Shown: piece after piece, positions 1,778 to 58,891 of the stretch
How positions within the stretch are numbered: the first letter of the stretch is position 1
Layout of the letters: the number at the start of each line of letters is the position of its first letter
Source: Elusimicrobiota bacterium
Lineage (GTDB): Bacteria; Elusimicrobiota; Elusimicrobia; Elusimicrobiales; UBA9959
Direction: 5' to 3'
Assembly (NCBI GenBank): GCA_009773155.1
Contig: WOVA01000002.1
Coordinates: 6,889 to 70,888, forward strand
Length of the DNA stretch: 64,000 bases
Program-made: the position numbers and the translations under genes
The notes under the pieces: generated by a model
The model's input: the letters and a program-made list of their open reading frames with translations, nothing else
What the model was told of the DNA's origin: nothing
Databases searched by the model: none

Positions 1778-3154
1778 TTATTTGCGGGAAGTTCCGGCCA
1801 GCCGCGCCGCCAGGCCGGTATAGGGCCGTGACAGCAGCGCTTTGAGCTCCGCCTTCACGGCCGGCTTTACCGGCAGTCCGTCGACGAAGGCGTGGAGCTC
1901 CGGAACGGTTACGCCGCGGCCCCGGGTGAGGTCCTTGAGCAGCGAGTACGGGTCCTCTACCCCTTCCCTGCGCAGTAGGGTCTGTACCGCCTCGGCGTAG
2001 ACCTCCGGATGGTCGGCGAGCGAGCGGGCGGCGGCGTCGCGGTTCACGGCTATGCGCGAGAACCCTTCCATCATGGACTTATAGGCTATGAGCGAATGGG
2101 CGAAGGCCGCGCCGTAATTGCGCTCGACGGTGGAGTCGGAGAGATCGCGCTGCAGGCGCGAGACCGGCAGTTTGGCCGAGAAGAAGCCGCAGAGCGCGTT
2201 GGCCGCGCCGAGATTGCCCTCGGCGTTCTCGAAATGTATGGGGTTCACCTTCTGCGGCATCGTCGACGAGCCGACTTCCCCCGCCACCGCGCGCTGGACT
2301 ATGAGGCCGTCGCTGATATAGCGCCAGATGTCCTGGCACATGCCCGTGAGTATCGTGTTGGTGCGGCGCAGCGCGTCGAAAAGTTCCGCGACGGCGTCAT
2401 GCGGCTCTATCTGCGTGGTCAGCGGCGCGGCCTCTATCTTTATCTTCAGGCCCCGGGACGCGGCGGCGGCGAAGCGGCGGGCGAAGGCCGGCCAGTCGGC
2501 GCGCGGGAAAGCGGCCAGGTGCGCGTTATAGTTGCCGACGGCGCCCGAAAGCTTGGCCTGCAGCTGCAGCCCGGCCAGCTGCGCGCGCTGGCGCTCAAGC
2601 CGCGCGGCGAAGACGGCGAATTCTTTGCCGAAGGTGGTGCCGACGGCGGGCTGGCCGTGCGTGCGGGCCAGCAGCGGGTCGGCGGCGTGGCGCCGGGCCA
2701 GCCGGCGCAGTTCGGCGATGATATCGTCGAGCGCGGGCAGCAGGACCTTCTCCAGCCCCCGCGCCAGCATCAGCGCGTAGGCGAAGCTGTTGACGTCCTC
2801 GGAGGTCAGGGCGAAATGTACGTATTCGCGGTACTTCGCCAGACCGGCGCGGGTGAGCCGCTCCCGGATGAAGCGCTCGCAGGCCTTCACGTCGTGGCGG
2901 GTCTCCCGCTCGATGGCTTTCACCCGCGCGGCGTCGGCCGGAGAGGCGTTCTTGAGCGCTTCGAGCAGATTTTTCCCCTTCGCGGGGAGGCGGGGTATGC
3001 CGGTGCCGGGCAGGCCGCAGAGCAGATCGAGGTAGAGGGCCTCGACTTCAAGGCGGTGGCGTATCAACGCTTCTTCGCTGAAGTAACGGGAGAGCGGCCG
3101 GGTGACCGCCGCGTAGCGTCCGTCCACCGGGCTTACGGCCTGTAATTCGGTCAT
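1778..3154 (-). CDS. purB: adenylosuccinate lyase
   Basis: 458 aa. Contains SPVDGRY near the N-terminus and the fumarate-lyase signature GSSTMPQKVNP. Confidence 0.9.
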   Translation of the reverse strand: MTELQAVSPVDGRYAAVTRPLSRYFSEEALIRHRLEVEALYLDLLCGLPGTGIPRLPAKGKNLLEALKNASPADAARVKAIERETRHDVKACERFIRERLTRAGLAKYREYVHFALTSEDVNSFAYALMLARGLEKVLLPALDDIIAELRRLARRHAADPLLARTHGQPAVGTTFGKEFAVFAARLERQRAQLAGLQLQAKLSGAVGNYNAHLAAFPRADWPAFARRFAAAASRGLKIKIEAAPLTTQIEPHDAVAELFDALRRTNTILTGMCQDIWRYISDGLIVQRAVAGEVGSSTMPQKVNPIHFENAEGNLGAANALCGFFSAKLPVSRLQRDLSDSTVERNYGAAFAHSLIAYKSMMEGFSRIAVNRDAAARSLADHPEVYAEAVQTLLRREGVEDPYSLLKDLTRGRGVTVPELHAFVDGLPVKPAVKAELKALLSRPYTGLAARLAGTSRK

Positions 3155-7200: not shown

Positions 7201-7565
7201 CTCCTCCCCTGGTGCTCGTCGCCGACGACGAGCCCGATTATCTCGAGATCGCCTCGCGGCTGCTGGAGGAGGCCGGGCTGCGCGCCGCCCGGGCCGCCAC
7301 CGGCGGCGAATGCCTCGCCGCCGCCGCCGCGGAGAAGCCGGGCCTTATAGTTCTGGACATAGGCCTGCCCGACATGAGCGGCCTGGACGTTCTCAAGTCC
7401 CTCAAGTCGGACCCGGCCCTTAAGGAAGTCCCCGTCCTGCTTTTCACCGTGCGCTCGGAACTGGATTATGTCTCGGCCGGGCTGGCGGCCGGCGCGGCCG
7501 GCTATGTCATAAAGCCTTTCCGTCCCGAAGATTTCATAAAGAGAGTGAGGTCCTTCTTTGGCTAA
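7197..7565 (+). CDS. single-domain (CheY-like) response regulator
   Basis: LVLVADDEPD, LIVLDIGLPDMSG, LLFT and VIKPF motifs. GTG start overlaps the preceding stop (GTGA). Confidence 0.85.
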   Translation: MTPPLVLVADDEPDYLEIASRLLEEAGLRAARAATGGECLAAAAAEKPGLIVLDIGLPDMSGLDVLKSLKSDPALKEVPVLLFTVRSELDYVSAGLAAGAAGYVIKPFRPEDFIKRVRSFFG

Positions 7566-8313
7566 GACACCAGCGGCCGGCCGGCCCTCCGCCGCCGTCG
7601 TCTCGTCCGGCCCCGCCGGGGAGCGGATGCTCAAGGCCCTGGAACGGGCCGGCTTCGCCGCGGCATCTTTTCCCGCCGCGGGACCGTTCATCTCCTCGCT
7701 CGCCTCGGCGGTGCCGGACCTGGCCGCCGTAGACACTGAGCTGCCGGACCTGGGCGGGGCCGACCTGGCGCTGGCCCTGCGCCGCAATCCCCCCACTGCC
7801 GGCGTCACGCTGATAATATTTTCAGCCGCGCCGCGCGTCCCGGCTGAAGTCGTTACCGGGCTGGACAGCGGGGCCGACGATTATCTCAGCCCTCTCCCCC
7901 CTCCCGAAGAACTGGATGCCCGGCTGCGCAATCTTCTGGAGCGCGGCCTGCGCGGGCGCGCCGGGCCGGCATCAGCGGGGGACTCCATGCGGCAGGGTGT
8001 CCCCGTTCCGCCCGTTATCAGGGCCGGCGGCCTGGAAGTGGACCTCTCGGCGCGCACGGTGACCGCCTGCGGCAAGGCCGCGGACCTGACCAGCCTGGAA
8101 TTCGACCTGCTCGTTTTTTTTCTGAACCACCCCAACCGCGTCATAGCGCGCGGAACGCTGATGGAGGCCCTCTGGAAGGACCCCGCTTCGGCGTCCCAGC
8201 GTGCCGTGGACAAGCGTGTGGAGGCGCTGCGCGCCAAACTGGGCGGCTTCGCGGCGCGCATAGAGACGGTGTTCGGAATGGGATACCTGTTGAGGCTCAA
8301 CGACGAATGCTGA
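7558..8313 (+). CDS. OmpR/PhoB-family winged-helix regulator with degenerate receiver domain
   Basis: C-terminal Trans_reg_C pattern (LEVDLSARTV...LTSLEFDLLVFFLNHPNRVIARGTLMEALW...VDKRVEALRAKL...ETVFGMGYLL). The receiver keeps the phospho-Asp position (AAVDTELPD) but reads VVSS where VVDD is expected and YLSPLP where Y.tKPf is expected. TTG start overlaps the upstream gene by 8 nt. Confidence 0.75.
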   Translation: MAKTPAAGRPSAAVVSSGPAGERMLKALERAGFAAASFPAAGPFISSLASAVPDLAAVDTELPDLGGADLALALRRNPPTAGVTLIIFSAAPRVPAEVVTGLDSGADDYLSPLPPPEELDARLRNLLERGLRGRAGPASAGDSMRQGVPVPPVIRAGGLEVDLSARTVTACGKAADLTSLEFDLLVFFLNHPNRVIARGTLMEALWKDPASASQRAVDKRVEALRAKLGGFAARIETVFGMGYLLRLNDEC

Positions 8314-11910: not shown

Positions 11911-13329
11911 TTAATTATTTAAGGGGAACTCGGCGCCGAAGACCGACCCGCCTCGCGCGCCGGGCCGGTAGAAGACTTTTCCGCTGTGCAGCCCGGCGAT
12001 GCGGCGGCACAGGGAGAGGCCCAGCCCGGTTCCCCCGGCCGCGGCGCCGGGAGCCCTGTAGAAGGCCTCGAAAAGCCTGCTCTCCGCCCCGGGCGGGACG
12101 CCCGGGCCGGTATCGGCCACTTCGAAGACGAGCGAGCCCTCCCGGCGGAGGACTTTTACCTCGACGGAGCCTCCCTTAGGGGTGAACTTGAGGGCGTTGG
12201 CGAGGAAATTAGTCAGCATATGGGCCGCCAGCTCCCTGTCCAGCCCGGCCGGCAGGCTTTCCTCCCCGGAATATTCCAGCCTGAGCCCCAGGTCGGCGGC
12301 GCGGGGCTTGAAGAAATCGGTCACATCGCGCGCCAGCGCCGCGGCGTCCTCGGGGCCCGGGTTGAACGGCATCTCCCCCCGCTCTATGCGGGCCAGGTCC
12401 AGCAGGCCGGTCACAAAAGCGGACAGCCGCGAGACGTTCTCCCTGATGCGCCGGTAATCGCCCTTCTCCGTCTCGCCCGCGCCGGGGCGGCGCTCGAGCA
12501 GCGCCAGGCGGCTCTCTATCGCGCCCAGAGGCGAGCGCAGTTCGTGCGTCACCGAAGAGACGAAGGCTTTCTTCATGTTCTCCAGTTCCAGCAGCTTGGC
12601 CGACATCGTATCGAAAGCGGCGCCGAAGGCGGCTATCTCGTCGGAGCCGCCTATCGAGGCCCTGGAGCCGAAGCGACCGGCACCGATATCGGCGGCCAGC
12701 GCCGAGAGCCGGCCCAGCCTGCGCGAGATGCCGGCCGAGAGCAGGAAGGCCAGCACGCCGGCCAGCGCCGCCGACAGCGCCGCCGCATGCGCGGTATTGC
12801 GCCAGAGCGCCATCAGAAGGTCCGACCGCTCCTTCTCCAGATAGTCCGCGGAGAAGTCCAGCCGGACGGCGGCGCCCTGCGCGGAGGCCCGCCGGATCAG
12901 GGCGGCATTCGCCGCAGTCGGTGGCCGGGCGGCGTAGCGCCCGGCACCTGCGGAGCCGGAGGCTCGTTGTTCCGCCGGGAGCTCTGCGACCGGCCGCGTC
13001 AGCCGGCGCCCGGGGGCGGCGGCGCCCGGCGGAGGCTTCCCCCGGCGTATCTCCGTTTCGGCGCCGCTCTTCCAGGTGAGGAAAGTCGCGGCTATATCGG
13101 GCCTGGAGCGGCGCAGATCGGCCAGGTAGTCCACCAGCATCAGCTGGTCGCCGGCCAGGGCGGCTTCCGCCGCCATGCGCTCCGCGCCGGCCGCGGCCGC
13201 CGCGATACGCTCCTCCTGTACGCGGTAGATCTCGTCCCTGCCGAAGCGGTAGAAAAAATAGCCGGCCGCCAGCGCGGCCGAAAGCGCCGCGGCCAGGAGC
13301 GCCAGGTTCAGCTTGGTCCTTAACGTCAT
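11911..13329 (-). CDS. sensor histidine kinase (TM, HAMP, HisKA, HATPase)
   Basis: H-box VSSVTHELRSPLGAIE, N-box NFLANALKFTPKGG, G1 DTGPGVP, G2 GTGLGLSLC. Confidence 0.9.
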   Translation of the reverse strand: MTLRTKLNLALLAAALSAALAAGYFFYRFGRDEIYRVQEERIAAAAAGAERMAAEAALAGDQLMLVDYLADLRRSRPDIAATFLTWKSGAETEIRRGKPPPGAAAPGRRLTRPVAELPAEQRASGSAGAGRYAARPPTAANAALIRRASAQGAAVRLDFSADYLEKERSDLLMALWRNTAHAAALSAALAGVLAFLLSAGISRRLGRLSALAADIGAGRFGSRASIGGSDEIAAFGAAFDTMSAKLLELENMKKAFVSSVTHELRSPLGAIESRLALLERRPGAGETEKGDYRRIRENVSRLSAFVTGLLDLARIERGEMPFNPGPEDAAALARDVTDFFKPRAADLGLRLEYSGEESLPAGLDRELAAHMLTNFLANALKFTPKGGSVEVKVLRREGSLVFEVADTGPGVPPGAESRLFEAFYRAPGAAAGGTGLGLSLCRRIAGLHSGKVFYRPGARGGSVFGAEFPLNN

Positions 13330-20918: not shown

Positions 20919-21056
20919 ACAGGTTCTTCAGGGCGGGGTGCGATTCCCCACCGGCGGTGGTCCCGGAAGGGCGAGCCCGCGAGCCGAGGGAGAGATCCCG
21001 GAGCATGACCCGGTGAGATCCCGGGGCCGACGGTAAAGTCCGGATGAAAGAAGGAC
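20919..21056 (+). promoter_or_regulatory. FMN riboswitch (RFN element) aptamer
   Basis: CUUCAGGGCGGGGUGCGAUUCCCCACCGGCGGU...AGCCCGCGAGC...GGUGAGAUCCCGGGGCCGACGGUAAAGUCCGGAUGAAAGAAGG matches the conserved RFN core blocks. It lies upstream of ribBA. Confidence 0.9.
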
Positions 21057-21107
21057 TTGGCGACAGCGTGACTCCGCCATTGGCGGCGCCCGGCTGGCCG
21101 GCCCCGG

Positions 21108-22369: not shown

Positions 22370-22828
22370 ATGAAAATAGTGGAAGGAAAACTCAACGCCG
22401 AAAAACTCAAGTTCGCGCTGATAGTCTCCCGGTTCAACGATTTCCTCACCGGCAAGCTCGCCGACGGGGCGGTCGACACGCTGAAAAGGCACGGCGCCGA
22501 CGAGAAGGACCTGACCCTGGTGAAAGTCCCCGGCGCCTATGAACTGGCTCTGGCCGCCGACAAGGCCGCCGCCGGCAATTACAGCGCCGTCATCTGCCTG
22601 GGCGTCATCATCCGCGGCGACACGCCGCATTTCGACCTGGTCGCCGCCGAGACCGCCAAGGGCGTGGCCGAAGTCGCCATGCGCCATAAGAAGCCGGTCA
22701 TCTTCGGCGTCGTCGCGGCCGACAACCTGGAGCAGGCCATAGAGCGCTGCGGCGCCAAGCAGGGCAACAAGGGCGCCGAGGCCGCCATGGCCGCTATAGA
22801 AATGGCCAACCTGTTCAAGAATTTATAA
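22370..22828 (+). CDS. ribH: 6,7-dimethyl-8-ribityllumazine synthase
   Basis: 152 aa. FALIVSRFNDFLT...VPGAYELALAA...VICLGVIIRGDTPHFD. Confidence 0.9.
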   Translation: MKIVEGKLNAEKLKFALIVSRFNDFLTGKLADGAVDTLKRHGADEKDLTLVKVPGAYELALAADKAAAGNYSAVICLGVIIRGDTPHFDLVAAETAKGVAEVAMRHKKPVIFGVVAADNLEQAIERCGAKQGNKGAEAAMAAIEMANLFKNL

Positions 22829-22850
22829 GGAGACGGGAGGATATAGCTCA

Positions 22851-23040
22851 CCCCGGGGACACGCGGCGAGGAACATGAGGAGCTTTTTCCCCGAGCGTAG
22901 TGAGGGAACCGGCACTGCCGGACGGGCATGATTGTCTGAGGCCCGAGGCGCTATGCGCCCGGGCCGAGTTCGTGCCCGGCCGAACGAAGCGAAGGTGCAT
23001 CCCGGAAAAAGCGAACCGTGACGAGCGCGTGTCCCCGGGG
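22851..23040 (+). repeat. structured intergenic element, copy 1 (190 nt, closed by 15-bp stem CCCCGGGGACACGCG / CGCGTGTCCCCGGGG)
   Basis: A ~165-nt core (GCGGCGAG...GGAACCGGCACTGCCGGAC.GGCATGA.TGTCTGAGGCCC...GCGCTATGCGC.CGGGCCGAGTTCGTGCCCGGCCGA...CCGGAAAAA...CCGTGACGAGCGC) is repeated at 39290-39489 on the other strand. It occupies most of the 257-nt ribH-ribD gap. Confidence 0.85.
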
Positions 23041-23085
23041 GGGAGCCAAGCCGCTGACAGGACCCCGATAGTTATTCCTTAGCTT

Positions 23086-24177
23086 ATGACCGACAAAGAA
23101 CTGATGCAGAGGGCCATGGAACTTGCGCGCCGCGGCAGCTGCGGCGCCCATCCTAATCCCATCGTCGGCGCGGTGCTGGCCAGGCGGGGCCGGATCATCG
23201 CCGAGGGCTGGCACGCCCGCTGCGGCGGCCCCCACGCCGAGGCCGTCGCCCTGAAAAAGGCCGGCGCCCGCGCCCGCGGCGCCGACCTCTACGTCACACT
23301 CGAGCCGTGCTCCACCCACGGCAAGACCCCGCCCTGCACGGAGGCTATAATCGCCGCCGGAGTGGCCCGCGTCTTCATCGGCGCCTCCGACCCCAACCCC
23401 CGCCACAGCCGCCGCGGCGGCGCCATATTGCGCGCGGCCGGGATAAAAGTTGAGACCGGCCTCCTGCGCCGCGAATGCGGGGAACTCAATCCCGCCTTCG
23501 ACAAGTATATGCGCACCCGCCTGCCTTATGTCACGCTCAAGACCGCCCAGAGCCTCGACGGCCGCCTCGCCGACGCCGCCGGCCGCTCGCGCTGGATCTC
23601 CTCGCCGCAGTCGCGCCGCTTCGCCCATAGGCTGCGCGCCGAGGCCGACGCCGTGGTGGCCGGCGTGGGCACGGTGCTCGCCGACGACCCGCTGCTCAAT
23701 GTGCGCGGCTTTAAAGTCTCCCGCCAGCCCTGGGTGGTCATACTCGACTCCCGACTGCGTATATCGCCCAAAGCCCGCGTGTTTCAGAACGACCGCGTCA
23801 TCATCGCCGTCGCCGGCAAGGCCCCGGCCGCTGCGGTAAAGCGCCTGCCGCGCCACGCCGAGGTCCTGCAGCTCCCCAGGGACCGCGACGGCCGTCCATC
23901 GCTCCCGGCCCTGCTTAAAGCCCTGGGCTCGGTAGGCATAAGCCATATACTGGTGGAAGGCGGAGGCAAAGTCGCCGGTTCCTTCATCAGCCAGGGCCTG
24001 GTCGACCGCTATTGCTGCATCATCGCCCCCATGGTTATCGGCGGCACCGCTTCCAGAAGTTCCGCCGTCTGGCCCGACAGGATCAACGCCGCCCGCAAAG
24101 TCCTGGGCGTACAGGCCGAAATAAAGGATTCTTTCCGTCTCGGCCCCGACCTTATGCTCGACGTGAGGTTTAAATAG
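23086..24177 (+). CDS. ribD: bifunctional riboflavin deaminase/reductase
   Basis: 363 aa. Deaminase zinc motifs HAE...TLEPCSTHGKTPPC. C-terminal RibD_C-like reductase part. Confidence 0.9.
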   Translation: MTDKELMQRAMELARRGSCGAHPNPIVGAVLARRGRIIAEGWHARCGGPHAEAVALKKAGARARGADLYVTLEPCSTHGKTPPCTEAIIAAGVARVFIGASDPNPRHSRRGGAILRAAGIKVETGLLRRECGELNPAFDKYMRTRLPYVTLKTAQSLDGRLADAAGRSRWISSPQSRRFAHRLRAEADAVVAGVGTVLADDPLLNVRGFKVSRQPWVVILDSRLRISPKARVFQNDRVIIAVAGKAPAAAVKRLPRHAEVLQLPRDRDGRPSLPALLKALGSVGISHILVEGGGKVAGSFISQGLVDRYCCIIAPMVIGGTASRSSAVWPDRINAARKVLGVQAEIKDSFRLGPDLMLDVRFK

Positions 24178-24222
24178 GGGGACACAATACCTATTATCGC
24201 CTATAATAGGTATTGTGTCCCC
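24178..24222. repeat. perfect 20-bp hairpin (GGGGACACAATACCTATTAT-CGCCT-ATAATAGGTATTGTGTCCCC)
   Basis: Read directly. It begins 1 nt after the ribD stop and ends 9 nt before the ribE ATG. The stem is AT-rich with GGGGAC/GTCCCC ends like the other palindromic elements. Confidence 0.85.

Positions 24223-30307: not shown

Positions 30308-30311
<4 letters not shown>
28791..30311 (-). CDS. nuoM: NADH-quinone oxidoreductase subunit M
   Basis: 506 aa. AFAVKVPLWPFHTWLPDAHVEAPTAGS, typical of NuoM. Confidence 0.85.
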
Positions 30312-32230
<1,919 letters not shown>

Positions 32231-37523: not shown

Positions 37524-38021
37524 TTATTTATGCGCCTTCGCCGCCGCCCGCAGGTCGGAGATGAGCTTATCGAGTTTCTCCACCGTCAGGCTCTCGTGGT
37601 AATCGTCGTTGACCATCATGACCGGGGCGGTGCCGCAGGCGCCCAGGCATTCGGCGGTGATAAGAGTGAAAACCCCGTCATGGGTGGTGCCGCCTTCCTC
37701 TATGCCGAGGCGGCCCTTGAGATATTCCAGCAGCTTCACCGAGCCGGCCAGGTGGCAGGAGAGGTTGCGGCAGACCTGCAGCAGGTATTTTCCTCCGGGC
37801 TCGCGGCGGAACATGGTGTAGAAAGTCAGTACTCCTTTCACTCTGGCGTAGGAGACGCCCAGCAGGCCGGCCAGCGCCTGCGCCGCCTCGTCGGGGAAAT
37901 GGCCCAGTTCGCGCTGCACTTCCTGCATCAGCGGTATCAGGGCGGCTTCGGCCCGGGGATACCTGGCCACGGTGGGCGCGACCTTGCGGTTGAATTCCTC
38001 GGAGAACTTGAACTTCTTCAT
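37524..38021 (-). CDS. nuoE: NADH-quinone oxidoreductase subunit E
   Basis: 165 aa. Thioredoxin-like 2Fe-2S motifs VCRNLSCHLAG and ECLGACGTAPVMMVND. Confidence 0.9.
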   Translation of the reverse strand: MKKFKFSEEFNRKVAPTVARYPRAEAALIPLMQEVQRELGHFPDEAAQALAGLLGVSYARVKGVLTFYTMFRREPGGKYLLQVCRNLSCHLAGSVKLLEYLKGRLGIEEGGTTHDGVFTLITAECLGACGTAPVMMVNDDYHESLTVEKLDKLISDLRAAAKAHK

Positions 38022-39241
38022 CGTTCCAGCTCCCCGCCTATCATGTTGATCTGGCCGAAGGAGGCTATGATGTCGGCGATATAGCCGCCCTTGATGAGGC
38101 GGCCCAGGCCCGCGGTCAGCGTGAAGCAGGGCGGGCGCACGCGCAGGCGCCAGGGCCGGCCCGTGCCGTCGGAGACCAGGTAGAAGCCCAGCTCGCCGTT
38201 GCCGCCTTCGACGGCCTGGTAGACCTCGCCGGCCGGGGGCTTTACGCCCTCGTAGGTCAGCTTGAAATGGGCCATCAGCGCCTCGATATTGCCGTACACT
38301 TCTTCCTTGGGCGGCAGCGTGACGCCGTAGCCGGGATGGTTGACCGGGCCGGCCGGGATCTGTTTCAGGGCCTGCTCCACTATTCGCATGCTCTGGCGCA
38401 TCTCTTCCAGCCGGACCAGGTAGCGGTCGTAATTGTCGCCGGCGTCGCCGACGGGTATGTCGAAGCTGAAGCGGTCATAGACCAGGTAGGGGCTGGCCTT
38501 GCGCACGTCGTAGGGCACGCCCGAGGCGCGCAGCACGGGGCCGGTGAAGGCCAGCGAGACGGCGTCCTCTCTGGATATTTTCCCGGTGCCGCGCAGGCGG
38601 CCGTTGAAGATGGGATTGCGGGTGAGCAGCCGGTCGGCGTCGGCTATATTGGCGCGCACTTTTTTAAAGACCGCGGCGGTGTCTGCGGCGAAGGTGTCCG
38701 GCAGGTCCCGGGTTATCCCCCCGACGCGGGACCAGGCCGGGGTGATGCGGCCGCCGGCGACGGCGTCGGTGAGGCGGTAGAGGTCTTCGCGGGCGTTGAT
38801 CAGGTAGAAATAGACGGTGAAGGCGCCCAACTCCATGGCGCTGGCGCCCAGGCAGGTGAGATGGTCGGTCAGGCGCGAGAGTTCGCTCATGATGACGCGG
38901 GCGTACTTGCAGCGCTCGGGCGTCTCTATGCCCATGAGTTTCTCGACGGCCAGGGCGTAGCCGACATTGTTGATGAACGGCGAGACGTAATTGAGGCGGT
39001 CGGTGTAGGGGATGACCTGGTTGTAAGTGACGTTCTCGCAGGTCTTCTCGAAGCCGCGGTGCAGGTAGCCTATCTCGACGTCGGCGTCCTTTATCCGCTC
39101 CCCCTCGACGCTGAGCAGTATGCGCACTATGCCGTGCATGGCCGGGTGCGACGGACCCATGTTGAGCAGCAGGCGGCCGTCGCCCGCGTTCTCGAGGCTC
39201 CAGTTCTTGGGAAGTTCGTGCGCCGGTCTTTCCATTGGCAT
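38018..39241 (-). CDS. nuoD: NADH-quinone oxidoreductase subunit D
   Basis: Start MPMERPAHEL (alternative ATG at 39235). NMGPSHPAMHG, EIGYLHRGFEK. The C-terminus reads FGQINMIGGELER. Confidence 0.9.
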   Translation of the reverse strand: MPMERPAHELPKNWSLENAGDGRLLLNMGPSHPAMHGIVRILLSVEGERIKDADVEIGYLHRGFEKTCENVTYNQVIPYTDRLNYVSPFINNVGYALAVEKLMGIETPERCKYARVIMSELSRLTDHLTCLGASAMELGAFTVYFYLINAREDLYRLTDAVAGGRITPAWSRVGGITRDLPDTFAADTAAVFKKVRANIADADRLLTRNPIFNGRLRGTGKISREDAVSLAFTGPVLRASGVPYDVRKASPYLVYDRFSFDIPVGDAGDNYDRYLVRLEEMRQSMRIVEQALKQIPAGPVNHPGYGVTLPPKEEVYGNIEALMAHFKLTYEGVKPPAGEVYQAVEGGNGELGFYLVSDGTGRPWRLRVRPPCFTLTAGLGRLIKGGYIADIIASFGQINMIGGELER

Positions 39242-39289: not shown

Positions 39290-39489
39290 GGCTTGCCGAA
39301 CGGACTTGCGCTCGTCACGGTCCGGTTTTTCCGGGCCCACTCTTCGCTCACTCGGCCGGGCACGAACTCGGCCCGCGCGCATAGCGCACAGGGCCTCAGA
39401 CAGTCATGCCTGTCCGGCAGTGCCGGTTCCCTCGTTCGCTCGAGGAAAAACCTCCGCATGTGACTCGCCGCAAGTCCGTTCGGCAAGCC
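39290..39489 (-). repeat. structured intergenic element, copy 2 (200 nt, closed by 21-bp stem GGCTTGCCGAACGGACTTGCG / CGCAAGTCCGTTCGGCAAGCC)
   Basis: The reverse complement aligns with 22851-23040 over the ~165-nt core. It lies in the 279-nt nuoC-nuoD gap and reads in the same sense as nuo transcription. Confidence 0.85.
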
Positions 39490-39520: not shown

Positions 39521-39997
39521 TTAATCCGCATGGTCTATCCTCGGCTGGCGGGCTTTGAGCGGGTAGTCCTTGCGCAGGGGGTGCCCCTCGAAGGAGTCGT
39601 ACATGAGCAGGCGGCGGAGGTCGGGATGTCCCTTGAAATCTACGCCGTACATATCCCAGGCCTCGCGCTCGAACCAGTCGGCCGAGAGCCAGAGTCCGGT
39701 CAGCGAATCTAGCTCCGGCCTGGCGCCGGGCAGGCGGGCCTTGAGGCGCAGGCGGGCGTTGGTCTTCGAGTTGTAGAGATGGCAGACGACCTCGAAACGG
39801 GGCTCGCGCGGCAGGTAGTCGGCGCCGCAGAGGTCCATGAGGAAGTCGAAGCCCAGTTCATCCTTCAGGAATGCGGCGGCCTCCAGCCAGGCTTCAGGCG
39901 CTATGACGGCGGTGTCGTCGCCGCGGAAAGCGTGCGTCTCTGCGACCTTGCCGCCGAGCTTCGCCTTCAGCGTCTCTAAAATATTCTCAACGGGCAT
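39521..39997 (-). CDS. nuoC: NADH-quinone oxidoreductase subunit C
   Basis: Start MPVENILETLK (track ORF reaches 40021). ADWFEREAWDMYGVDFKGHPDLRRLL motif. Confidence 0.85.
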   Translation of the reverse strand: MPVENILETLKAKLGGKVAETHAFRGDDTAVIAPEAWLEAAAFLKDELGFDFLMDLCGADYLPREPRFEVVCHLYNSKTNARLRLKARLPGARPELDSLTGLWLSADWFEREAWDMYGVDFKGHPDLRRLLMYDSFEGHPLRKDYPLKARQPRIDHAD

Positions 39998-40475
39998 GTT
40001 TTTTATCCAGCACGGATTCACGGGAGACTTTTTCCTGCAGCCTGATCAGCGCGTCGAGTACGGCCTCGGGGCGCGGCGGGCAGCCCGGGATGTAGATATC
40101 GACCGGGATTATCTTGTCTATGCCCTGCACGGTGGCGTAATTGTCGTAGAAGCCGCCGGAGGTGGCGCAGACGCCGAAAGAGACTACCCACTTGGGCTCG
40201 CACATCTGGTCGTAGACGCGTTTAAGAACCGGGGCCAGCTTCTCGTTGACCGTTCCTACGACGAAGAGCACGTCGGCCTGGCGCGGCGAGAACCGCGGGT
40301 ACTCGGCGCCGAAGCGGGCTATGTCGTAGGTGGAGGCCCAGGCGCTCATGAACTCCATGCCGCAGCAGGCGGTGACGAAAGGGTACTGGAAGAAGGAATA
40401 CTTGCGCCCCCAGTTTATCGCCTCGTCGAGGCGGGTGGTGAGGAACGAATTGCCGAAGAGCGTTTCTAGTCCCAT
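39987..40475 (-). CDS. nuoB: NADH-quinone oxidoreductase subunit B
   Basis: Start MGLETLFGNS. ACCGMEF, SFGVCATSGG and IPGCPPRPE iron-sulfur ligand motifs. The upstream part of track ORF overlaps nuoA. Confidence 0.9.
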   Translation of the reverse strand: MGLETLFGNSFLTTRLDEAINWGRKYSFFQYPFVTACCGMEFMSAWASTYDIARFGAEYPRFSPRQADVLFVVGTVNEKLAPVLKRVYDQMCEPKWVVSFGVCATSGGFYDNYATVQGIDKIIPVDIYIPGCPPRPEAVLDALIRLQEKVSRESVLDKKHAR

Positions 40476-45822: not shown

Positions 45823-45865
45823 GATAAGAGCATAAGATATAAACTACCGGAGCGTAAGTCAAACA

Positions 45866-45961
45866 GGGGACGCTGATTACTAAATGCCTAATTATCCCCA
45901 AGGCCGGGGAAGGCGCGGTCAGAGGCGTCCGCTAATTAGGCATTTAGTAATCAGCGTCCCC
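45866..45961. repeat. long perfect hairpin element, copy B (29-nt arms 45866-45894 / 45933-45961, 38-nt loop)
   Basis: GGGGACGCTGATTACTAAATGCCTAATTA ... TAATTAGGCATTTAGTAATCAGCGTCCCC. The outer 21 nt are identical to copy A (635-726). The right arm contains the last 3 sense codons plus the stop codon of the 45951-46898 gene. Confidence 0.9.
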
Positions 45962-46898
45962 TAACGCGGCGGACGCGGTAGGGAGGGCGGCCGGAGGAGC
46001 CGTAGTAGGTGCGCATCACCATCTCGGCGATGAGGCCGAGCAGGATGAACTGTATGCCGACGAGGGCGAAGAAGATGGCGACCAGGAAGAGCGGCTGGTC
46101 CTTGACGAAAACGCCGTTGGCGAGCTTGTTGTAGAGAGTCCAGCCCACCATGATCACCGATGAAAAACCCAGGAGCAGGCCCGCCCCGCCGAAGACGTAG
46201 ATCGGTTTGGAGAGGTAATCGCCCATGAACTTGACGGTCAGCAGGTCCAGCGCCACCTTAAAGATGCGTCCGAGTCCGTACTTGGAGCCGCCGCGCAGGC
46301 GGGGCCGGTGCGCCACCGGCGTCTCCTTTATGACGGCGCCGCGGTAGCCGGCCAGCGCCGGCAGGAAGCGGTGCATCTCGCCGTAGAGTTCCAGTTCCTT
46401 CAGGAAGGAGGCGCGGTAGACTTTCAGCGTGCAGCCGTAGTCGCGCAGCCGGACGCCGGTCACGGCGGAGATCAGCCAGTTGGCCGCCCTGGAGGGCAGC
46501 ACGCGCGAGAAGAAAGGGTCCTTGCGCTCCTTGCGCCAGCCGCTGACCACGTCGGCGCCGTCCCTGGCCGTTTTGAGCATCCCCGGTATCTCGGCGGGGT
46601 CGTTCTGGAGGTCGCCGTCGAGCGCGGCTATATATTCCCCCCGCGCCTCGGCTATGCCGGCGCTCAGCGCGGCGGTCTGGCCGAAGTTGCGCGTCAGCGA
46701 TATCGCCCGGCACTCGGGTTCCGCGTCGGCCAGGCCGGAGAGTAGCTCCCAGGTGCCGTCGGTGGAGCCGTCGTCCACCCAGACGCATTCCCAGTCCCCG
46801 TCGAGAGACTTCAGCGCGGCCTTGAGTGAGTCCCACAGTTCCAAGACATTGTCGCGCTCGTTGAAGACGGGTATGATCACGGAGAGTTCGGGACTCAT
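45951..46898 (-). CDS. GT2 polyprenyl-phosphate glycosyltransferase (GtrB/ArnC/DPM1-like)
   Basis: 315 aa. SVIIPVFNE, VWVDDGSTDGT and DGDLQND motifs, plus two C-terminal TM helices. Confidence 0.8.
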   Translation of the reverse strand: MSPELSVIIPVFNERDNVLELWDSLKAALKSLDGDWECVWVDDGSTDGTWELLSGLADAEPECRAISLTRNFGQTAALSAGIAEARGEYIAALDGDLQNDPAEIPGMLKTARDGADVVSGWRKERKDPFFSRVLPSRAANWLISAVTGVRLRDYGCTLKVYRASFLKELELYGEMHRFLPALAGYRGAVIKETPVAHRPRLRGGSKYGLGRIFKVALDLLTVKFMGDYLSKPIYVFGGAGLLLGFSSVIMVGWTLYNKLANGVFVKDQPLFLVAIFFALVGIQFILLGLIAEMVMRTYYGSSGRPPYRVRRVRGR

Positions 46899-58096: not shown

Positions 58097-58891
58097 TTGC
58101 CCCCCCGCCGGAACAACGAGCCTCTGGCTCATCAAGTGCAGGGCGCTATGCCGCCCTGCCTGAGGGATATCGCCGCCGGACTGCTCTTCTTTCTGCCGGC
58201 CCTGGCTCTCAATCTGGGCGCCGTGCGCCACCGCCCCCCGCTGCCCCCGGTCTCGGAGATCCGCGAGGTGCGCCGCAGCGCCGCCGAGGACGCGGCGGCC
58301 GTCAGCCTGGGCGCGCGCCGCCTCTTCGCCGACATCTGGTTCATACGCCTCATGCAGTATTACGGCACCCGTGAATCCGTCCACGACGAGAAGGTGCTCG
58401 CCCACCACGAACATCATCACGCCGACGGCAGCGTCTGCGATCACGGCCCGGGCTGGGAGAAGGGCGAGTACCCGGAGTTCGTGCCACTTTCCCTTCACGT
58501 CATGGACCTCGACCCCTGGTTCCACAGCGCGGTGATCTACTCGGCAGCCTCGCTGGCCTATAACCTGAACAGGCCCGCCGAGGCCAGGGAGGTACTGGAA
58601 CTGGCGATAAAGAGGGCCCCGCGCGAATGGCGCTATCACTCGGTGCTGGCGGCCCTGGGCCACAGCGGGGAGGAGAGCCCGCGGGAGATAGTGAGGCTGC
58701 TGCTGCCGGTGGCGCGGCAGCCGGACTGCCCGACGATGCTGAAGAACCAGACCGCTTTCCTGAGCAAGCGCGCCGGCGACTACGCCACCGCCGCTGAGAT
58801 ATACCGGGACATCGCGGAGAACGCGCCCGAGAAGGAATACGCCGGGCGCGCGCGCAGGGAACTTGAAAAACTGGAAGGAAAGACGCGGTGA
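58097..58891 (+). CDS. hypothetical protein with His-rich patch and TPR-like C-terminus
   Basis: TTG start at 58097 (alternative ATG 58148). One TM helix, a HHEHHHADGSVCDH patch, and helical repeats. No family recognised. Confidence 0.45.
   Translation: MPPRRNNEPLAHQVQGAMPPCLRDIAAGLLFFLPALALNLGAVRHRPPLPPVSEIREVRRSAAEDAAAVSLGARRLFADIWFIRLMQYYGTRESVHDEKVLAHHEHHHADGSVCDHGPGWEKGEYPEFVPLSLHVMDLDPWFHSAVIYSAASLAYNLNRPAEAREVLELAIKRAPREWRYHSVLAALGHSGEESPREIVRLLLPVARQPDCPTMLKNQTAFLSKRAGDYATAAEIYRDIAENAPEKEYAGRARRELEKLEGKTR

Follow-up and report, generated by a model that had tools for sequence, protein, structure and literature searches.

The spacer between ribH and ribD in a 64,000-nucleotide stretch of an Elusimicrobiota bacterium (assembly GCA_009773155.1, contig WOVA01000002.1, positions 6,889 to 70,888; hereafter the window) contains a structured element of ~200 nt, here called E1, which occurs a second time between nuoC and nuoD. 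The question raised by this locus is whether E1 is an RNA kept for the operons in which it lies or a repeat that is kept as DNA. The two copies (copy 1 at 22846-23047 on the plus strand, copy 2 at 39290-39489 on the minus strand) had been described in the initial annotation as structured and unannotated, and direct reading, alignment and comparison of their folds with shuffled sequences confirmed this. At about even probability, E1 is considered here to be a previously undescribed family of ~200-bp non-coding structured interspersed intergenic repeats, similar to the REP (repetitive extragenic palindromic), BIME, ERIC, Correia, bcr and MITE (miniature inverted-repeat transposable element) classes, which is spread and kept as DNA. 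Within the reach of the scans the family is confined to a small clade of high-GC Elusimicrobiales, and it is unusual for the size of the unit, for a core that is branched yet constant and for termini that are free. That E1 has a genuine function as RNA, whether selected by the host or encoded by the element, is given roughly one chance in three.

Fold and covariation of the E1 unit

The two window copies were folded as RNA and both gave a long rod with a perfect closing stem of 15-21 bp, well below the dinucleotide shuffles (z -5.85 for copy 1 and -7.16 for copy 2). The E1 unit is a long imperfect palindrome in three layers, namely the outer stem P1, the stem P2 and a multi-branched core. P1 has ~20 bp, with weakly conserved ends (GGCTY...RAGCC) and a middle which varies yet stays complementary. 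The second layer comprises an internal loop, a short helix and P2, and differs among at least four subfamilies: P2 is GCUUUUUCC/GGAAAAAGC in subfamily A, GGCUUUC/GAAAGCC in subfamily B and GGCUUUUU/AAAAAGCC in subfamily C, and in subfamily D (loci L055 and L084; collected loci carry L numbers) P1 and P2 are wholly different around the same core. In one copy (L036:7506) the P2 helix was completely replaced by GCCGUCGC/GCGACGGC. The third layer is a core of ~100 nt with nearly constant sequence, made up of P3 (3 bp), the P4 hairpin (CCGGC-ACU-GCCGG) and the long P5 hairpin, whose tip is GCGC-UAU-GCGC. Rare variants of the core were found with pairing kept at the base of P5 (CGGGCAUGA/UUCGUGCCCG to CGACCAAGA/UUCUUGGUCG), at its tip (GGCCCGAGGCGC/GCGCCCGGGCC to GGCCUAGCGCGC/GCGCGCAGGCC) and in P4 (to CCGCCUCCGGCGG). 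A hammerhead or K-turn was considered from the CUGA/GA motifs in P5 and rejected, as the consensus positions misfit when inspected by eye.

Pairwise alignment of the two window copies showed a mean identity of 85% over ~240 columns, rising to 93% in an 82-nt block, and two core words of 20 and 23 nt each occurred exactly twice in the window against a chance expectation of 0.00-0.04. The paired differences claimed in the initial annotation were all recovered. The closing stems are unrelated yet self-complementary (GCTCACCCCGGGGACACGCG/CGCGTGTCCCCGGGGGGGAGC in copy 1, GGCTTGCCGAACGGACTTGCG/CGCAAGTCCGTTCGGCAAGCC in copy 2), a C:G to G:C swap separates GCTTTTTCC/GGAAAAAGC from GGTTTTTCC/GGAAAAACC in P2, and in the folds the pair that lengthens the GCGC-TAT-GCGC tip is G:C in copy 1 but U.G in copy 2. 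Copy 2 carries ~9 private core changes, several of them pair-preserving, and those at the P5 tip (G to U, A to G, G to U and C to G) preserve a 6-bp helix in the fold. The location given earlier for copy 1 stands, but the unit is slightly longer than the 190 nt proposed, about 22846-23047, as its P1 reaches 22846 and 23046. The frame-breaking indel reported between the copies was seen as 1-nt indels, which destroy any shared reading frame, and a coding role of E1 was ruled out on this ground.

The structure was tested on a covariance-model alignment of ~60 E1 copies with 62 pairs, using column shuffles and slid partners as controls. Standard pairs occupied 95.9% of the cells, compared to 84.8% in column shuffles and 34-48% with slid partners; the alignment, being fitted to the structure, is biased toward pairing, though the margin is large and the changes are also visible in the raw sequences. 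Changes on both sides were found in 36 of the 62 pairs (23 +/- 1.8 in shuffles, 16-21 with slid partners), and by stem in 19 of 20 pairs of P1, 7 of 8 of P2 and all three of P3. The swap pair in P2 (columns 51:406) was GC in 36 copies and CG in 17. The covarying stems proposed from the two window copies are thus strongly borne out, and the E1 fold is strongly backed by covariation. Imperfect palindromes in DNA are, however, corrected by intramolecular template switching (quasipalindrome mutagenesis), which yields 'compensatory' double changes without selection on RNA. In a palindromic element with many copies, strong covariation alone does not prove a host RNA function, as arm-to-arm templated correction of this kind can mimic it. 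The family is a clean natural case in which compensatory change has kept a large, branched fold in copies of either orientation.

The stability of the two strands was then compared. Of 37 full copies, 33 had a sense RNA more stable than the antisense RNA, the difference usually being 8-20 kcal/mol. Among seven copies checked which lie antisense to their flanking genes, the sense strand of the element still folded better in five (L005, L019, L020, L044:2424 and L056) and both strands were about equal in the remaining two (L068 and L074). As the sense bias persists in most antisense copies, the direction of host transcription does not set this constraint. G.U exceeded A.C combinations by 88 to 13 distinct contexts in minimum free energy (MFE) folds, a method which under-counts A.C, and by 36 to 20 in direct comparison of the P1 arms; two U.G pairs were fixed across the family in the alignment. 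The sense strand folded with DNA parameters was also far under its shuffles (z -5.4), and the antisense RNA was still strongly structured (z -4.9). A constraint on one strand is consistent with a function at the level of the element, be it as an intermediate of single-stranded DNA or as an RNA that the element encodes; it agrees less well with host cis-regulation.

Distribution, position and rearrangement of E1 copies

An exact-word scan of 185,579 species-representative genomes returned 54 loci. The 34 true copies were all in six metagenome-assembled genomes (MAGs) labelled Elusimicrobia, Elusimicrobiales or Elusimicrobiaceae, with 4-8 copies per MAG, and the other 20 loci were chance matches in coding sequence of Actinomycetota and others. 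A metagenome scan with the second core word added 30 loci (~25 real and 5 chance); selected by one word, only 15 of these 30 carried the other word intact, the remainder besides the chance matches being core variants or truncated copies. In all, ~60 further copies or fragments were found beyond the window, every real one in high-GC Elusimicrobiales MAGs or related metagenome contigs. A covariance model built on 22 copies and run over 506 kb of related DNA gave 64 matches on the sense strand, scoring 90-231 bits; on the opposite strand these loci reached 27-30 bits and never more than 30, and this large gap makes the orientation calls unambiguous. The copy numbers are lower bounds, and a search with a hidden Markov model (HMM) added more divergent copies in loci already collected. 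Two independent assemblies of the window's own species (L086 and L087, with RibH identical to that of the window) break inside E1, 23-54 nt past ribH. As E1 fragments short-read assemblies, copy counts in MAGs are underestimates. The Elusimicrobia are almost unstudied genetically, and in their MAGs these repeats break assemblies at fixed points, mark synteny breakpoints and offer landing sites of the IS110 type.

The earlier statement that E1 matches no known RNA family was upheld by cmscan at gathering and at permissive E-values. With Rfam 15 at gathering thresholds, the window gave only a flavin mononucleotide (FMN) riboswitch and two tRNAs, with nothing for E1; the copy 1 region at E <= 10 gave noise of 11-13 bits, and E <= 1 gave nothing for E1 variants or for the companion modules E2 and X described below. 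Weak matches to C/D-box families (11-12 bits, E about 2) were dismissed as noise. Plasmid and phage collections gave no match in blastn, and an origin from either was dropped. In the literature, no paper tying Elusimicrobia to REP, MITE or intergenic repeats was found.

The position of the copies was analysed with a crude gene caller based on GC frame; in the window it recovers the genes that Pfam supports. Nearly all copies lie directly downstream of a gene end, typically 3-90 nt past the stop codon. Of ~43 copies, ~18 are in sense and ~10 in antisense between co-directional genes, ~13 lie between convergent genes and two between divergent genes, one of the latter arrangements having been created by an insertion sequence (IS). 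The orientation is about 2:1 in favour of sense, but many of these rows are orthologs or duplicates, and the excess is not significant once they are collapsed. The sense placement inside operons noted initially therefore holds for both window copies (rib on plus, nuo on minus) and fails as a general rule, given the ~10 antisense copies between co-directional genes and the flipped orthologs. Local GC skew compared with E1 orientation gave 19:29 (p = 0.19), confounded by gene strand, and the idea that orientation is tied to replication direction, as in IS200/IS605, was set aside since this comparison is uninformative.

Opposite orientations of E1 were found at orthologous loci of different species (L005 and L046) and likewise in L039:3233 compared to L044:2423/L075, and in L026 compared to L067. 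The clearest pair is window copy 1 and the copy downstream of ribH in the MAG UBA11179 (L020; RibH 95% identical): the interior is reversed and the arms have stayed in place, the one next to ribH still starting with AGCTC and the far one still carrying its G-run. As read from the sequences, the difference is an in-place inversion between the P1 arms. A population-level inversion at ribH was also considered and found no support in two Logan contigs with identical RibH, which simply end within the repeat. The synteny itself breaks at E1, the order being ribH-E1-ribD in the window, ribH-E1-other in UBA11179 and other-E1-ribD in TamC13-45 (L054). The L054 copy (2883-3093) is damaged and its P1 arms are poorly complementary; these mismatched arms may mark recombination between copies. 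Another damaged copy (L004:1049-1235) has its 5' arm deleted relative to its ortholog L053.

Whether P1 belongs to the element was decided from its distribution. In subfamily B one and the same P1 sits at no fewer than eight unrelated loci, and the GGGGACACGCG type of P1 seen in window copy 1 was found at six or more. Conversely, orthologous loci carry different P1 sequences, both in L005 and L046, where the flanks are ~90% identical, the P1 sequences are unrelated and the downstream gene, starting MCGIFGI, is probably purF, and in L039:3233 compared to L044:2423/L075. The P1 variants are linked by stepwise paired changes and have the GGCTY/RAGCC ends in common, and no solo hairpin with a P1 sequence was found in the 506 kb of related DNA. 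P1 travels with E1 and is not a host hairpin, because the same P1 occurs at unrelated loci and different P1 sequences occur at the same orthologous locus.

Many copies are embedded in mosaics of other structured repeats. Modules E2 and E3, rods of ~170 nt, lie upstream of many E1 copies, and module X (~100 nt, with GCCCGC-UAU-GCGGGC hairpins) is nested in P5 in L026, L062 and L070, stands ahead of P4 in L027, L064 and L072 and is inverted upstream elsewhere. At least three such modules (E2, E3 and X) were noted in the same MAGs at L046:520-700, L048:1425-1614, L032:5302-5491, L026:2428-2528 and other places, and also alone, for example at L075:13487-13631; none of them occurs in Rfam or in the window. 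An outer motif, TAAGGAAYAACTAT.CCGGGG, was found on either side of E1 in either orientation, with 20 occurrences near copies. The idea that this motif bounds a larger transposon as its terminal inverted repeat was rejected, as none of the 20 occurrences flanks an open reading frame (ORF).

An IS110-family element adjoins model position 40/41 in four different E1 copies, and its end takes the place of their left 40 nt. These copies, in L011 (contig end, 1-97), L017 (2666-2763), L030/L077 (contig ends) and L062 (658-1812), have four different P1 3' arms. The junction consensus is ...TATAATAAAAC(C/T)TGGTTATACA joined to AGCTTTTTCC, and as read ...TATAATAAAACYTGGTTATACA joined to AGCTTTTTCC. The adjoining ORF, L062:658-1620 on the minus strand, matches PF01548 and PF02371 and is an IS110-family DEDD transposase; a second junction was not found in L062, and only one IS junction was seen. 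The fixed junction in four independent copies implies sequence-specific targeting of E1 by IS110. REP sequences likewise serve as targets of IS110 relatives such as IS621. Nearly all E1 copies have thus settled immediately past a gene end, where they can flip, recombine, take in other modules and be targeted by an IS110-family element.

The favoured reading and its alternatives

In the reading favoured here, the family would have spread and would persist as DNA in the manner of REP/BIME, ERIC, Correia or bcr-type repeats, and its conserved core and strand-specific fold would help the element to propagate or to maintain itself. In the most economical explanation, a trans-acting enzyme would recognise a single-stranded hairpin and leave no target-site duplication, and E1 would then be mobile. 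The likeness to REP/BIME is considerable: both are extragenic, mostly past gene ends and rarely between divergent genes, occur in both orientations, are palindromic with kept complementarity, form mosaics, are specific IS110-family targets and lack target-site duplication. E1 differs in being a multi-branched unit of 200 nt instead of a REP hairpin of 20-40 nt, in having 4-8 or more copies per genome (a lower bound) instead of hundreds, in lacking a GTAG-type 5' motif and in conserving its interior and not its stem. With ERIC/IRU, Correia/NEMIS, RUP, BOX and Bacillus cereus bcr1 it has in common the size of 100-200 bp, an imperfect palindrome predicted to fold as RNA if co-transcribed, compensatory changes, either orientation, a place in operons and 3' regions and restriction to a clade. 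It shows no sequence similarity to them and its core is branched and near-constant; Correia, bcr1 and RUP, moreover, carry conserved terminal inverted repeats with target duplications (TA, TTTAT and similar), whereas E1 has variable termini and no duplication.

A classical IS-derived MITE is, like E1, short, non-coding and multi-copy with pairing ends, but E1 has unconserved termini, no target-site duplication and no parent IS, and its gradient of conservation is reversed. The initial annotation had named many copies in random orientation with conserved termini and target-site duplications as the mark of a plain MITE. Many copies in mixed orientation were indeed found, but with no conserved termini beyond GGCTY...RAGCC and no duplications, and the covariation was supported. 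The ends of IS200/IS605, PATEs and integron attC sites also fold strand-specifically, tolerate G.T and leave no target duplication, and attC sites conserve structure while their sequence drifts. They are, however, small simple hairpins, and in attC sites it is the ends that are conserved and the centre that varies, the reverse of the pattern in E1; in the blocks of ~8 kb around E1 copies, neither an HUH transposase nor an integrase is linked to the element.

Several observations weigh against spread as DNA. No empty site with joined flanks was found, among loci which were themselves collected for containing E1. No direct repeat was present at the GGCT/AGCC boundaries in any of ~35 full copies inspected, no termini are conserved beyond GGCTY...RAGCC, and neither a parent IS with E1 ends in the 506 kb of related DNA nor an associated transposase was found. 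Classical MITEs show the opposite of this pattern of conserved interior and free termini, and the hairpins of 20-40 nt that known hairpin-recognising transposases use are smaller and less like RNA than the multi-branched unit of 200 nt. Paralogs inside one MAG are just 78-96% identical and several E1 loci are filled in at least two species, which shows the family to be old and stable. A weak preference for sense may also exist. The near-constant core over at least four subfamilies, with stems ~50% diverged, argues for selection at the sequence level, which could equally well act on RNA, though core conservation is partly inflated by ascertainment, the loci having been gathered by exact core words. 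Conservation does not distinguish DNA recognition from RNA as the target of selection on the core, and individual copies drift. An apparent empty site (L055 compared to L038) was an artefact of a divergent subfamily with a truncated HMM match.

The readings in which E1 acts as RNA were weighed against these results. A host-selected cis-acting RNA in polycistronic mRNA, serving as an RNase III processing site on P1, as a 3' stabiliser or as a translation or decoupling element between ribH and ribD and between nuoC and nuoD, is unlikely. Such a role would agree with two sense copies inside essential operons, which must thus be read through, with retention of the nuoC-nuoD copy in a second species (MAG WAS_Bin_5, L025; element ~91% and coding flanks 87-88% identical), with the placement 3-90 nt past stop codons, with the strong covariation and tolerance of G.U on the sense strand, with a core conserved across subfamilies and with the four coordinated changes by which the diverged copy 2 retains its tip helix. 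It sits poorly with the ~10 antisense copies between co-directional genes, some in tight spacers (47 and 28 nt in L020), with flipped copies at orthologous loci, with a sense-fold bias which host transcription does not set, with flanking genes of no shared function (rib, nuo, purF and others) and with the tolerated nested modules and IS110 insertion. It is distinctly unlikely that E1 copies are dispersed genes, or cassettes, encoding a structured RNA of a new kind, ~165-200 nt long, in which the core would be a protein-binding or catalytic platform and P1 a processing signal, the product being a trans-acting ribonucleoprotein RNA or an RNA or single-stranded DNA intermediate of an undescribed mobility without target duplication or conserved termini. 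Dispersed genes for a structured non-coding RNA, either cleaved at P1 from any transcript or expressed from its own unrecognised promoter, with a protein-binding core and a role in trans or as intermediate or guide of RNA-dependent mobility, are likewise improbable. An intrinsic, strand-specific, multi-branched fold with a conserved core and free peripheral stems is the pattern of a functional RNA, the fourth subfamily (L055, L084) places an entirely different P1 and P2 round the same core, and the perfect flanking duplex may be likened to the RNase III processing stems of rRNA precursors. Yet no consensus sigma-70-like promoter or intrinsic terminator lies within either window copy, Rfam holds no relative, no neighbouring protein gene recurs among the collected loci, and decayed or truncated copies, nested insertions and flips are the behaviour of repeat DNA. 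Should a dedicated enzyme bind the core, or the core itself be an RNA, E1 would point the way to a mobility or ribonucleoprotein system that is new.

Two further readings concern the P1 arms. The initial annotation had considered a mobile element that inserts into hairpin loops; what survives of this is an interspersed and possibly mobile repeat. That a core of ~165 nt enters the loops of host hairpins, P1 being host sequence, is very unlikely. P1 does vary between copies while the core does not, copy 1 and L020 differ as if by two independent insertions in one hairpin (arms in place, interior reversed), and the window has palindromes with the GGGGACRC...GYGTCCCC ends of the copy 1 P1 at 24178-24222, 30607-30633, 634-727 and 45865-45963. 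All the evidence given above on the distribution of P1, namely its recurrence at unrelated loci, the unrelated P1 between near-identical flanks, the stepwise compensatory series with common ends and the lack of solo hairpins in the related DNA, speaks for P1 as part of the element. An inverton, in which the P1 inverted repeats are recombination sites and flipping of the core alters expression of a neighbour, is the least probable of all, and hardly credible. A segment of 165 bp between perfect inverted repeats of 20 bp, with one clear in-place flip between species, has the right form for it. Known recombinase-driven invertons, however, conserve their inverted repeats while the interior varies, the reverse of E1. 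There is also no promoter-like site inside, and no recombinase lies next to E1. Three contigs from the window's own species have a single orientation or end within the repeat. P2 and P5 covary as well, which a switch would not need.

In the favoured reading as an interspersed repeat, any effect on the host would be a by-product and not the family's reason. From the operon layout, the window copies must be co-transcribed with the rib and nuo operons, and a co-transcribed copy would form a very stable RNA rod with a perfect duplex of 20 bp, a plausible site for RNase III or barrier to exonucleases. E1 thereby puts such duplexes into two essential operons and may shape their mRNA processing, an effect of the window copies that is plausible.

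The window copies, their genes and other repeats

The features of the two window copies and their flanking genes are summarized in Table 1.

Table 1. Coordinates of E1 features and neighbouring genes in the window
Feature	Position	Strand	Remarks
E1 copy 1 (subfamily A), complete unit, ribH-ribD	22846..23047	+	cmsearch 230.8 bits, model positions 1-210; RNA MFE -114.2 kcal/mol, z -5.85
Copy 1 P1 5' arm GCTCACCCCGGGGACACGCG	22846..22865	+	pairs with 23026-23046; sequence, fold
Copy 1 P1 3' arm CGCGTGTCCCCGGGGGGGAGC	23026..23046	+	sequence, fold, family alignment
Copy 1 P2 5' strand GCTTTTTCC	22882..22890	+	pairs with GGAAAAAGC at 23004-23012; fold
Copy 1 P2 3' strand GGAAAAAGC	23004..23012	+	sequence, fold, family alignment
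Copy 1 conserved core	22904..22985	+	93% identical to copy 2; nearly invariant in 22 copies
Copy 1 P4 hairpin CCGGCACTGCCGG	22909-22921	+	inside core
Copy 1 long P5 hairpin, tip GCGC-TAT-GCGC	22923-22978	+	inside core
Whole ribH-ribD spacer	22826..23081	+	outer motifs common to flanks of other copies
E1 copy 2 (subfamily A, diverged), nuoC-nuoD	39290..39489	-	cmsearch 209.6 bits; MFE -118 kcal/mol, z -7.16
Copy 2 P1 arms	39489-39469 and 39310-39290	-	
Copy 2 conserved core	39352..39433	-	the 93%-identical repeat block
ribH, upstream of copy 1	22370..22828	+	PF00885 DMRL_synthase
ribD, downstream of copy 1	23086..24177	+	PF00383 and PF01872 RibD_C
nuoC, upstream of copy 2	39521..40045	-	PF00329 Complex1_30kDa, E 5e-46
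nuoD, downstream of copy 2	38018..39238	-	PF00346 Complex1_49kDa, E 6e-101

The gap between ribH and ribD is 257 nt, and motifs common to other copies occupy the entire spacer. Its left outer motif, TAAGGAGACGGG..., overlaps the ribH stop codon, and its right outer motif, ...GGACCCCGATAGTTATTCCTTA, stops 4 nt short of the ribD ATG; read on the other strand, it is the recurrent TAAGGAAYAACTAT.CCGGGG motif. Remnants of outer motifs take up the remainder of both window spacers. The FMN riboswitch (108 bits, 20920-21059) heads the cluster ribBA-ribH-[E1]-ribD-ribE. In other MAGs ribD or ribH is split from the rib cluster at E1, and control of ribD by the FMN riboswitch may accordingly vary by species.

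Other palindromes were also noted in the window. Directly after the ribD stop codon and before the riboflavin synthase gene (Lum_binding) lies a hairpin at 24178-24222 with a perfect 20-bp stem (GGGGACACAATACCTATTAT-CGCCT-ATAATAGGTATTGTGTCCCC), and with E1 the rib operon thus carries two different palindromic inserts. A MITE-like element of ~95 nt occurs in two copies, at 634-727 and 45865-45963, with perfect terminal inverted repeats of 29-30 bp (AGGGGACGCTGATTACTAAATG...) around an unrelated centre of 36-38 nt; its GGGGACRC...GYGTCCCC ends are common to the copy 1 P1 and to the hairpin after ribD. A perfect palindrome of 27 nt, GGGGACACCATGCSGCATGGTGTCCCC, was found at 30607-30633 and 7975-8003, and also in L061, L070 and L075. 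In the window it lies inside long putative ORFs (30308-32230 on the minus strand, 640 aa, and 7558-8313 on the plus strand, 251 aa), and this palindrome may have been inserted in frame into coding sequence, as the Rickettsia palindromic elements are. A pair of 57-nt inverted repeats, 86% complementary, was observed at 12923-12979 and 58104-58160 (GGCGGCATAGCGCCC...GAGCCTC...GTTGTTCCGCCGGG).

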